Source of the DNA: Escherichia coli
Lineage (GTDB): Bacteria > Pseudomonadota > Gammaproteobacteria > Enterobacterales > Enterobacteriaceae
NCBI RefSeq assembly: GCF_003334405.1
Contig: NZ_QOWM01000005.1
Direction: 5' to 3' (one strand)
DNA length: 64,000 nt
A model generated the notes under the pieces. It had not been told where the DNA came from, ran no database searches, and saw only the letters and a list, made by a program, of their open reading frames with translations. Both the position numbers and the translations under genes were made by a program. This document shows positions 3,456-3,970 of this stretch, piece after piece. The first letter of the stretch is position 1; the number at the start of each line of letters is the position of its first letter.

Positions 3456-3728
3456 TCAACTGCGAATATCATCATACTCCCGCGTTTTATCAAATTCATG
3501 TTTCGCAAATGGGCATAATGGGATAATTTTTCGTTTTTCCCGACGCATTTTTTCCACGACTTTCGCAACCAGCTGTTTACCAATCCCTTGCCCTTTCAGG
3601 CTTTCATCGACATCGGTATGTTCGATAATCGCTAAATTCTCTCCGGTCGGCACAAAGACAATTTCAGCGATTTGCTTGCCTTGTTTGTCATTAATGTAAA
3701 ATTTATTGTGGCCTTCGCGTATTTCCAT
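3456..3728 (-). CDS. yjdJ: Small GNAT-like acetyltransferase-fold protein (90 aa)
   Basis: 90-aa [40 protein letters not shown]...; matches the E. coli yjdJ product and its position next to yjdI. Confidence 0.85.
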
Positions 3729-3739
3729 TTTACCCTCGC

Positions 3740-3970
3740 TTATTTATGACGGTATTTCAGCGCGCCGCTCGGGCACGTATCAATCACTTTAACCACAGTG
3801 GCGACGTCGACTTCATCCGGCATGATCCACGGCTTTCGTTTGAGATTAAATAACTTGCCGTTGCCACGTACGCAATTGCCAGAATGCTGACATATCGCAG
3901 TGTTGAAATAGACATCGATCTTTTCGCCGGTATAACAGCGATAACCCCCGTCCAGTAGCGCCTGATCCAT
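3740..3970 (-). CDS. yjdI: Small cysteine-rich (putative metal-binding) protein (76 aa)
   Basis: 76-aa ORF with several Cys (CQHSGNC, CPSG); divergent from dcuS as in K-12. Confidence 0.85.

Follow-up and report, generated by a model that had tools for sequence, protein, structure and literature searches.

yjdI and yjdJ of Escherichia coli: pairing of a gene for a ferredoxin-like Fe-S protein with a minimal GNAT gene

Two small genes, yjdI and yjdJ, lie at positions 3456-3970 of a 64,000-nucleotide stretch of Escherichia coli DNA (contig NZ_QOWM01000005.1, assembly GCF_003334405.1; the whole stretch is referred to below as the window). YjdI belongs to Fer4_19, a family of ferredoxin-like iron-sulfur (Fe-S) proteins, and YjdJ is a minimal GNAT. 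Wherever we found a close homologue of yjdI, a homologue of yjdJ followed it directly on the same strand, and in several divergent sequence clusters the two are joined into a single chain. We consider it very likely that the pair constitutes one functional unit; the best explanation overall, which we regard as probable, is that yjdI and yjdJ form a self-contained operon and that their products act together.

Both genes, their family assignments, the structure of YjdJ and the Fe-S nature of YjdI were already known. In the literature searched we found no paper that discusses the pairing, which is a correct and ordinary finding, a database-level inference and not a discovery. The two genes are among those of E. 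coli to which no function has been assigned, yet they occur in about 98% of the complete E. coli genomes (5308 of 5426 have at least 80% of the 515-bp pair at one place). Their obligate pairing and their fusions merge two unknowns into one testable hypothesis, that of an Fe-S protein and a coenzyme A (CoA)-binding mini-GNAT acting together during stationary-phase or acid stress.

On the minus strand yjdI (3740-3970, 76 amino acids) comes first and yjdJ (3456-3728, 90 amino acids) second, and together they span exactly 3456-3970. The stop codon of yjdI (TAA, 3740-3742) and the ATG of yjdJ (3726-3728) are separated by an 11-nucleotide spacer (3729-3739, minus strand; GCGAGGGTAAA) that contains the Shine-Dalgarno sequence of yjdJ, GAGGG. 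An earlier reading made from the letters of the window (hereafter the sequence-only reading) had given the same coordinates, lengths and gap, and the list of open reading frames (ORFs) bears it out. Both are genuine genes and not chance ORFs, since they match Pfam families with E-values of 5e-30 (YjdI) and 2e-24 (YjdJ), YjdJ is the protein of Protein Data Bank (PDB) entry 5I0C, and both are annotated in RefSeq, where YjdI is named '4Fe-4S mono-cluster protein YjdI'.

Adjacency, fusion and joint expression of the pair

Using the closer YjdI alignment, we scanned one genome per species, which gave 80 loci from Enterobacterales genera and three Listeria species. Co-occurrence in other genomes, on which the sequence-only reading had staked its pairing, holds throughout: in 80 of 80 loci, with YjdI proteins 63-97% identical, a YjdJ homologue is encoded directly downstream on the same strand. 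This set is biased to Enterobacterales and Listeria, and we offset the bias by looking up the loci of nine distant, stand-alone YjdI homologues from a library of representatives at 50% identity. Five of the nine (46-59% identity) have a gene of the Acetyltransf_CG family 1-23 nucleotides downstream or overlapping by 4 nucleotides, each in a different context. Across 85 paired loci the distance from stop to start ranges from -1 to 39 nucleotides and is 10-11 nucleotides in 58, and a GAGG-like motif is retained in most of the spacers. The surroundings of the pair are much less constant. Among the fetched loci, dcuSR, ghoST and lysU adjoin it only in Escherichia, and when flanking ORFs were clustered no other gene family was common to more than 16 of about 90 loci; three larger clusters consisted of ORFs that shadow yjdI and yjdJ on the opposite strand.

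The two proteins also occur as natural fusions. Seven of the 150 best representatives are single chains of 170-191 amino acids, with Fer4_19 in the N-terminal part and a YjdJ-like domain in the C-terminal part, so that domain order equals gene order. All seven match both Pfam families at E <= 0.001, and the clusters that they represent are 33-44% identical to one another. These fusions are not assembly artefacts, because five of the seven clusters recur on several contigs or have several members; two of them include RefSeq proteins from Proteiniclasticum, whose natural fusions are exemplified by WP_211802309.1. One fusion carries the Joint Genome Institute label 'uncharacterized Fe-S cluster protein YjdI/predicted GNAT family acetyltransferase'.

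The association is asymmetric. No Fer4_19 gene neighbours the YjdJ-type genes of Staphylococcus aureus, a Tissierellia bacterium or Qipengyuania, and around the S. aureus gene no Fe-S partner was found within 2.5 kb. Because the GNAT thus occurs alone, whereas YjdI proteins of at least about 63% identity (80 of 80) and five of the nine distant ones are paired with a GNAT, YjdI would be the accessory subunit. A comparison of two loci illustrates the asymmetry. The S. aureus locus (L095) and that of a Bacillales-like genome (L092, GCA_000526675.1) have in common a MarR gene, a gene of 320 amino acids with a glyoxalase fold (59% identical) and the YjdJ-type gene (42% identical), and the Bacillales-like locus, not that of S. 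aureus, has a Fer4_19 gene ahead of the GNAT gene. Judged from these sequences, the Fe-S partner appears to have been gained or lost in a single neighbourhood.

Transcription of the two genes as one unit, which the sequence-only reading had thought probable, is supported by their parallel induction in published arrays. After an acid shift, yjdI and yjdJ both rise by log2 1.1-1.3 (about 2.2-2.5-fold) at 5 and 10 min, and in O157:H7 they are up 2.2- and 3.1-fold around entry into stationary phase. This fits a single yjdIJ transcript, as do the 11-nucleotide gap with its ribosome-binding site and a consensus scan of 2600-4300, which found no terminator-like site. In published data on spaceflight cultures, yjdI is among the raised genes, together with several other uncharacterised y-genes. 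We place the promoter of the unit in the 180-bp divergent intergenic region common to yjdI and dcuS (3971-4150), which also contains the Shine-Dalgarno sequence of yjdI (AGGGAAGG, 3973-3980). The consensus scan found no minus-strand sigma-70-consensus promoter upstream of yjdI; the -10-like hexamers GATAAT (3994-3999) and CATACT (3987-3992) were picked by eye only. Expression of the pair may depend on RpoS.

The three Listeria loci show an unusual contrast between the two halves of the pair. In Listeria goaensis, L. fleischmannii and L. valentina (L076, L078 and L079), YjdI is 65-74% identical to that of E. coli, unusually high for a comparison of Firmicutes with Proteobacteria, and the adjacent YjdJ is only 42-50% identical. 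These identities suggest either that yjdI was transferred horizontally or that the GNAT half has evolved much faster.

The Fe-S protein and the minimal GNAT

YjdI matches Pfam Fer4_19 (PF06902) over residues 13-76 (model positions 1-64 of 64; E = 5.4e-30). The family, formerly DUF1271 and corresponding to COG3592, is described as a 'divergent 4Fe-4S mono-cluster'. YjdI carries exactly the family motif, CxHx3Cx32CP, as defined for Fer4_19 (bioRxiv 10.1101/2024.04.03.587993). The CxHx3C half is encoded by codons C27-Q-H29-S-G-N-C33 (3872-3892, minus strand), and codons C66-P67 (3770-3775, minus strand) supply the Cys-Pro with the third predicted cluster ligand, 32 residues past C33. In an alignment of 28 sequences that reaches down to 34% identity, C27, H29, C33, C66 and P67 are invariant, and the fourth cysteine, C12, is unconserved (R, A, V, L, K and others). 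The sequence-only reading had taken the cysteine pattern of YjdI as the sign of a metal or Fe-S site. The motif and the ferredoxin fold uphold this for three of the four cysteines, those that are invariant and predicted to be ligands, and variable C12 has to be left out of the pattern.

Structure prediction and domain searches had been proposed as a check. The AlphaFold2 model of YjdI is of good quality (predicted local distance difference test, pLDDT, 90.5; predicted template modelling score, pTM, 0.79), and its top nine PDB matches in Foldseek are single-cluster ferredoxins, including 1FXR, 1VJW, 4OV1, 8AMP, 2Z8Q and 1SIZ. The Foldseek probabilities are 0.80-0.99 and the template modelling (TM) scores 0.5-0.65. 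The predicted fold is thus that of a monocluster ferredoxin, supported by the probabilities, the TM scores and the consistency of the matches, the E-values all being above 0.04. A PDB search with the YjdI sequence gave nothing meaningful (best E = 1.4). For YjdI and YjdJ, searches of NCBIfam gave matches below threshold only, and ten long Fer4_19 homologues had no match.

Compared with the classical monocluster ferredoxins (Desulfovibrio africanus Fd I, 1FXR; Thermotoga maritima, 1VJW; Mycobacterium tuberculosis Fdx, 8AMP; Pyrococcus furiosus Fd), YjdI has the same predicted fold (Foldseek probability 0.93-0.99, TM 0.51-0.65) and likewise a C-terminal Cys-Pro ligand. It differs from them in sequence (12-24% identity), in having CxHx3C instead of CxxCxxC, in an extra N-terminal helix and strand with a conserved GYRxY motif, and in being tied to one partner, unlike ferredoxins that serve as general carriers. 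We considered GYRxY as a marker of those YjdI proteins that are linked to a YjdJ, and rejected it: two homologues (P0290 and P0297) also have the motif, and no YjdJ-type gene lies downstream of them on their short contigs.

The closest studied relative of YjdI is the C-terminal Fer4_19 domain of a class E flavodiiron protein from Syntrophomonas wolfei. It shares the Pfam family and the CxHx3C...CP motif, is about 30% identical and superposes on YjdI with a root mean square deviation of 1.5 A between AlphaFold models. The S. wolfei domain is fused to the flavodiiron O2/H2O2 reductase core as the site of electron entry, whereas YjdI is a separate protein with a minimal GNAT as its partner. By electron paramagnetic resonance and resonance Raman spectroscopy the domain holds a [3Fe-4S]1+/0 cluster at +70 mV, and replacement of the conserved histidine by alanine or cysteine has no effect, which shows that this residue does not ligate the cluster. 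The spectrum of the domain is said to resemble that of E. coli YjdI, which is cited there as having been spectroscopically characterised in a Boston University thesis, known to us through that citation only (all in bioRxiv 10.1101/2024.04.03.587993). With this characterisation and a solved structure of YjdJ, the statement of the sequence-only reading that the functions of the two genes are not established is only partly true. It is highly probable that C27, C33 and C66 of YjdI hold an Fe-S cluster. By analogy with the S. wolfei domain, the cluster is most likely [3Fe-4S]; a labile [4Fe-4S] cluster is possible.

Fer4_19 behaves as a portable one-cluster redox module, because it is found attached to CDGSH domains as well as to the flavodiiron protein. 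CDGSH [2Fe-2S] domains are the commonest fusion among the long YjdI homologues (35 of 57). Such fusions are known as type 7 CDGSH proteins, which combine Fer4_19 with one or two CDGSH domains (PMC3174974, PMC5859297). They resemble the YjdI-YjdJ pair in that Fer4_19 is partnered with a second cofactor-binding domain, and they differ from it in that YjdI, with its 76 amino acids, has no CDGSH motif and its partner is predicted to bind CoA and not a [2Fe-2S] cluster. Rarer fusions also exist, one homologue carrying a Pirin_C domain and another a SnoaL-like domain. On one metagenomic contig (L087, 1612-3075), the Fer4_19 and GNAT genes are directly preceded by a pirin gene of the same orientation. 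A single apparent fusion to 'CoA_binding_2' (P0327) was dropped, the match being by eye probably to a short C-terminal fragment.

YjdJ matches Pfam Acetyltransf_CG (PF14542) over residues 9-88 (model positions 1-80 of 80; E = 2.1e-24), with weaker partial matches to Acetyltransf_1, Acetyltransf_7 and Acetyltransf_10. It is 100% identical over residues 1-90 to PDB 5I0C ('Uncharacterized protein YjdJ') and matches S. aureus 1R57/2H5M ('Acetyltransferase, GNAT family') over its full length (E = 4e-19). Its GNAT-like character, noted in the sequence-only reading, is thereby settled, and with about 90 amino acids and no N-terminal GNAT arm YjdJ belongs among the minimal GNATs of COG2388. Eukaryotes have COG2388 proteins as well, among them Arabidopsis At1g77540 and human NATD1. 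Fer4_19, on the other hand, has been reported absent from eukaryotes. At1g77540, S. aureus 1R57/2H5M and NATD1 are of the same Pfam family as YjdJ over the full length and have the motifs HT-V and C-x-F-A-K in common with it; unlike YjdJ, they have no Fe-S partner.

Two elements of YjdJ deserve mention. The loop K45-G-Q-G-I-G50 (codons at 3579-3596, minus strand) is similar to GNAT motif A, and we take it to be the part that holds the CoA pyrophosphate; G46 is conserved in 28 of 30 paired or fused sequences. The second element is LCPFAK, with C72-P73 (codons at 3510-3515, minus strand), in which C72 and A75 are conserved in 30 of 30 sequences of the same alignment. The GNAT half has no other invariant cysteine than C72, whose equivalent the unpaired S. 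aureus homologue (1R57) has as well. YjdJ is most likely a CoA- or acetyl-CoA-binding minimal GNAT.

How the two proteins may act together

We suggest the following scheme. Residues C27, C33 and C66 of YjdI would bind a cubane-type Fe-S cluster, most likely [3Fe-4S], YjdJ would bind CoA or acetyl-CoA, and YjdI would dock on YjdJ as an accessory redox or sensor subunit. The redox, oxygen or iron state of the cluster could then be coupled to the CoA-dependent activity of YjdJ by gating acyl transfer or, as an alternative form of coupling, through one-electron exchange between the cluster and the ligand bound to YjdJ. The unit is turned on at entry into stationary phase and after acid shock. The gene anatomy, the family membership, the fold, the conservation of the ligands, the obligate adjacency and the fusions have been shown; as to the complex, the type of cluster, the direction of control and the substrate, we infer and do not observe, and redox-gated acyl transfer in particular is offered tentatively, as a possibility that may well prove wrong. 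If the scheme is true, YjdJ would be the first physiological partner of a Fer4_19 protein, the CDGSH and flavodiiron fusions aside, and it might hint at the role of the widespread COG2388/NATD1 family.

Several points tell against this reading or limit it. Four of the nine distant Fer4_19 homologues (42-48% identical over the matched stretch) have no GNAT neighbour, and pairing with a GNAT is therefore a property of the YjdI subfamily and not of the whole Pfam family. The 80 paired loci come mostly from related Enterobacterales and are not independent samples. When a natural fusion (P0250) was modelled by AlphaFold2 with a paired alignment, both domains folded (pLDDT 87) and no confident interface between them was obtained (pTM 0.52). 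In a screen of 25 E. coli GNATs, the only in vivo test of YjdJ that we found, YjdJ expressed from its ASKA plasmid does not figure among the eight positives with acetyl-lysine bands (PMC6199490); YjdJ alone produced no new band, and its acetyltransferase activity is thus only putative. Finally, the cluster type of YjdI rests on the citation of a thesis.

A bolder version of joint action is that YjdI and YjdJ make up an undescribed kind of enzyme, in which an Fe-S cluster is wired to a minimal GNAT active site. The cluster would either switch acyl transfer or itself participate in reactions of the CoA thiol or thioester, the open iron site being occupied by CoA-S or by Cys72 of YjdJ. We consider this rather unlikely; if true, the GNAT superfamily would gain its first member that depends on an Fe-S cluster, and Fer4_19 a function in enterobacteria.

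Unlikely, too, is that YjdJ is a CoA- or acyl-CoA-binding subunit and no transferase, with the thiol of CoA or Cys72 completing, or reacting with, the three-cysteine cluster of YjdI, and the pair sensing or repairing the redox state of CoA thiols. This could take two forms, one in which the CoA thiol or Cys72 is the fourth ligand to a [4Fe-4S] cluster and another in which, as in ferredoxin:thioredoxin reductase, the Fe-S cluster drives reduction of a mixed disulfide between Cys and CoA. It would make sense of a YjdI with only three conserved cysteine ligands and, going by the studied homologue, no histidine ligand, of the invariance of C72, of the lack of lysine acetylation on overexpression of YjdJ and of the induction of both genes by stress. 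However, Cys72 is kept in YjdJ types that have no partner, such as S. aureus 1R57, which makes it a feature of the family and no partner-specific ligand; no confident interface was predicted; and the related S. wolfei domain stays a stable [3Fe-4S] cluster even with a cysteine at the histidine position.

We give still less weight to the view that YjdI is a general small electron carrier for another enzyme and that YjdJ modifies it, for example by acetylation of its N-terminus or of a lysine, the two being substrate and enzyme. Fer4_19 does serve as an electron-transfer module in flavodiiron and CDGSH proteins, and the open substrate site of the minimal GNATs suits protein substrates, At1g77540 being credited with in vitro acetylation of histones H3 and H4 (PMC11075575). 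Yet a stable covalent fusion of an enzyme with its substrate would be unusual in seven divergent clusters, and no conserved third gene nearby presents itself as the electron acceptor.

That yjdI and yjdJ are functionally unrelated and have been kept by inheritance as a compact operon is highly improbable. Most of the 80 loci belong to one order, Enterobacterales, and vertical inheritance explains much of their adjacency; but the pair is retained where its flanks differ, it turns up again in Listeria and, at 46-59% identity, in metagenomic contexts that are unrelated, and independent single-chain fusions are found on many contigs from different sources.

A GNAT-type toxin-antitoxin pair, which the small upstream gene, the short spacer, the downstream GNAT and the neighbouring type V system ghoST superficially bring to mind, is effectively refuted, since the known modules with this two-gene layout (TacAT, AtaRT, KacAT) combine a full-size GNAT toxin, toxic when overexpressed, with a DNA-binding antitoxin, whereas YjdJ is half that size and not among the four GNATs that stop growth on overexpression (PMC6199490), YjdI is an Fe-S ferredoxin, PADLOC gave no matches, a toxin and its antitoxin in one chain would be senseless, and the adjacency to ghoST is confined to Escherichia.

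Genomic surroundings

The first 8.4 kb of the window are E. coli chromosome, and the gene order of the matching RefSeq stretch is identical. By the ORF list and RefSeq, the plus strand carries the 3' end of dtpC (to 859) and lysU (1069/1093-2613) on one side of the pair, and dcuS (4151-5782), dcuR (5779-6498) and dcuB (7069-8409) on the other. Divergence of yjdI from dcuS, as the sequence-only reading had it, is true across the 180 bp that separate them, but the adjacency is specific to Escherichia and dcuS lies outside the yjdIJ unit. Regulation of the pair by DcuSR was weighed and rejected; dcuSR neighbours it in Escherichia only. In five Enterobacter/Lelliottia loci (L021, L033, L034, L041 and L045, at about 1500-3870 on the minus strand), a paralogous DcuS/DcuR-like two-component system lies divergently upstream of yjdI, in the position that dcuSR has in Escherichia. 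Its proteins are 27-32% identical to DcuS and DcuR, and it is perhaps CitA/CitB-like; its placement could be accidental or go back to a common ancestry of the neighbourhood.

Directly downstream of yjdJ, and outside the yjdIJ unit, lie the type V toxin-antitoxin genes ghoS (2933-3229, 98 amino acids) and ghoT (2732-2905, 57 amino acids), both on the minus strand. Among the fetched loci only Escherichia shows this adjacency, in three of its four loci; that of E. albertii (L070) ends before the position of ghoST. No NCBIfam model matches ghoS or ghoT. RNA folding of the spacer between yjdJ and ghoS was insignificant (z = -1.4), and Rfam matched nothing in positions 1-9000 of the window.

The 1.6-kb stretch at 2600-4200 is contiguous in 4669 E. 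coli genomes, compared with 5308 for the 515-bp pair, and in some genomes an IS1 element lies within this stretch. In extra-intestinal pathogenic strains, a low-GC island with the autotransporter genes tagB and tagC has been described between yjdI and yjdK (ghoS), with duplicated yjdJ sequence flanking it (PMC6592367). From the IS1 and island insertions it follows that yjdJ is a recurrent site of insertion.

For lysU, the ORF list starts the gene at a TTG (1069), and an in-frame ATG at 1093 matches the RefSeq start of the orthologue in the comparison strain ER1709, which is labelled lysS there and flagged as frameshifted.

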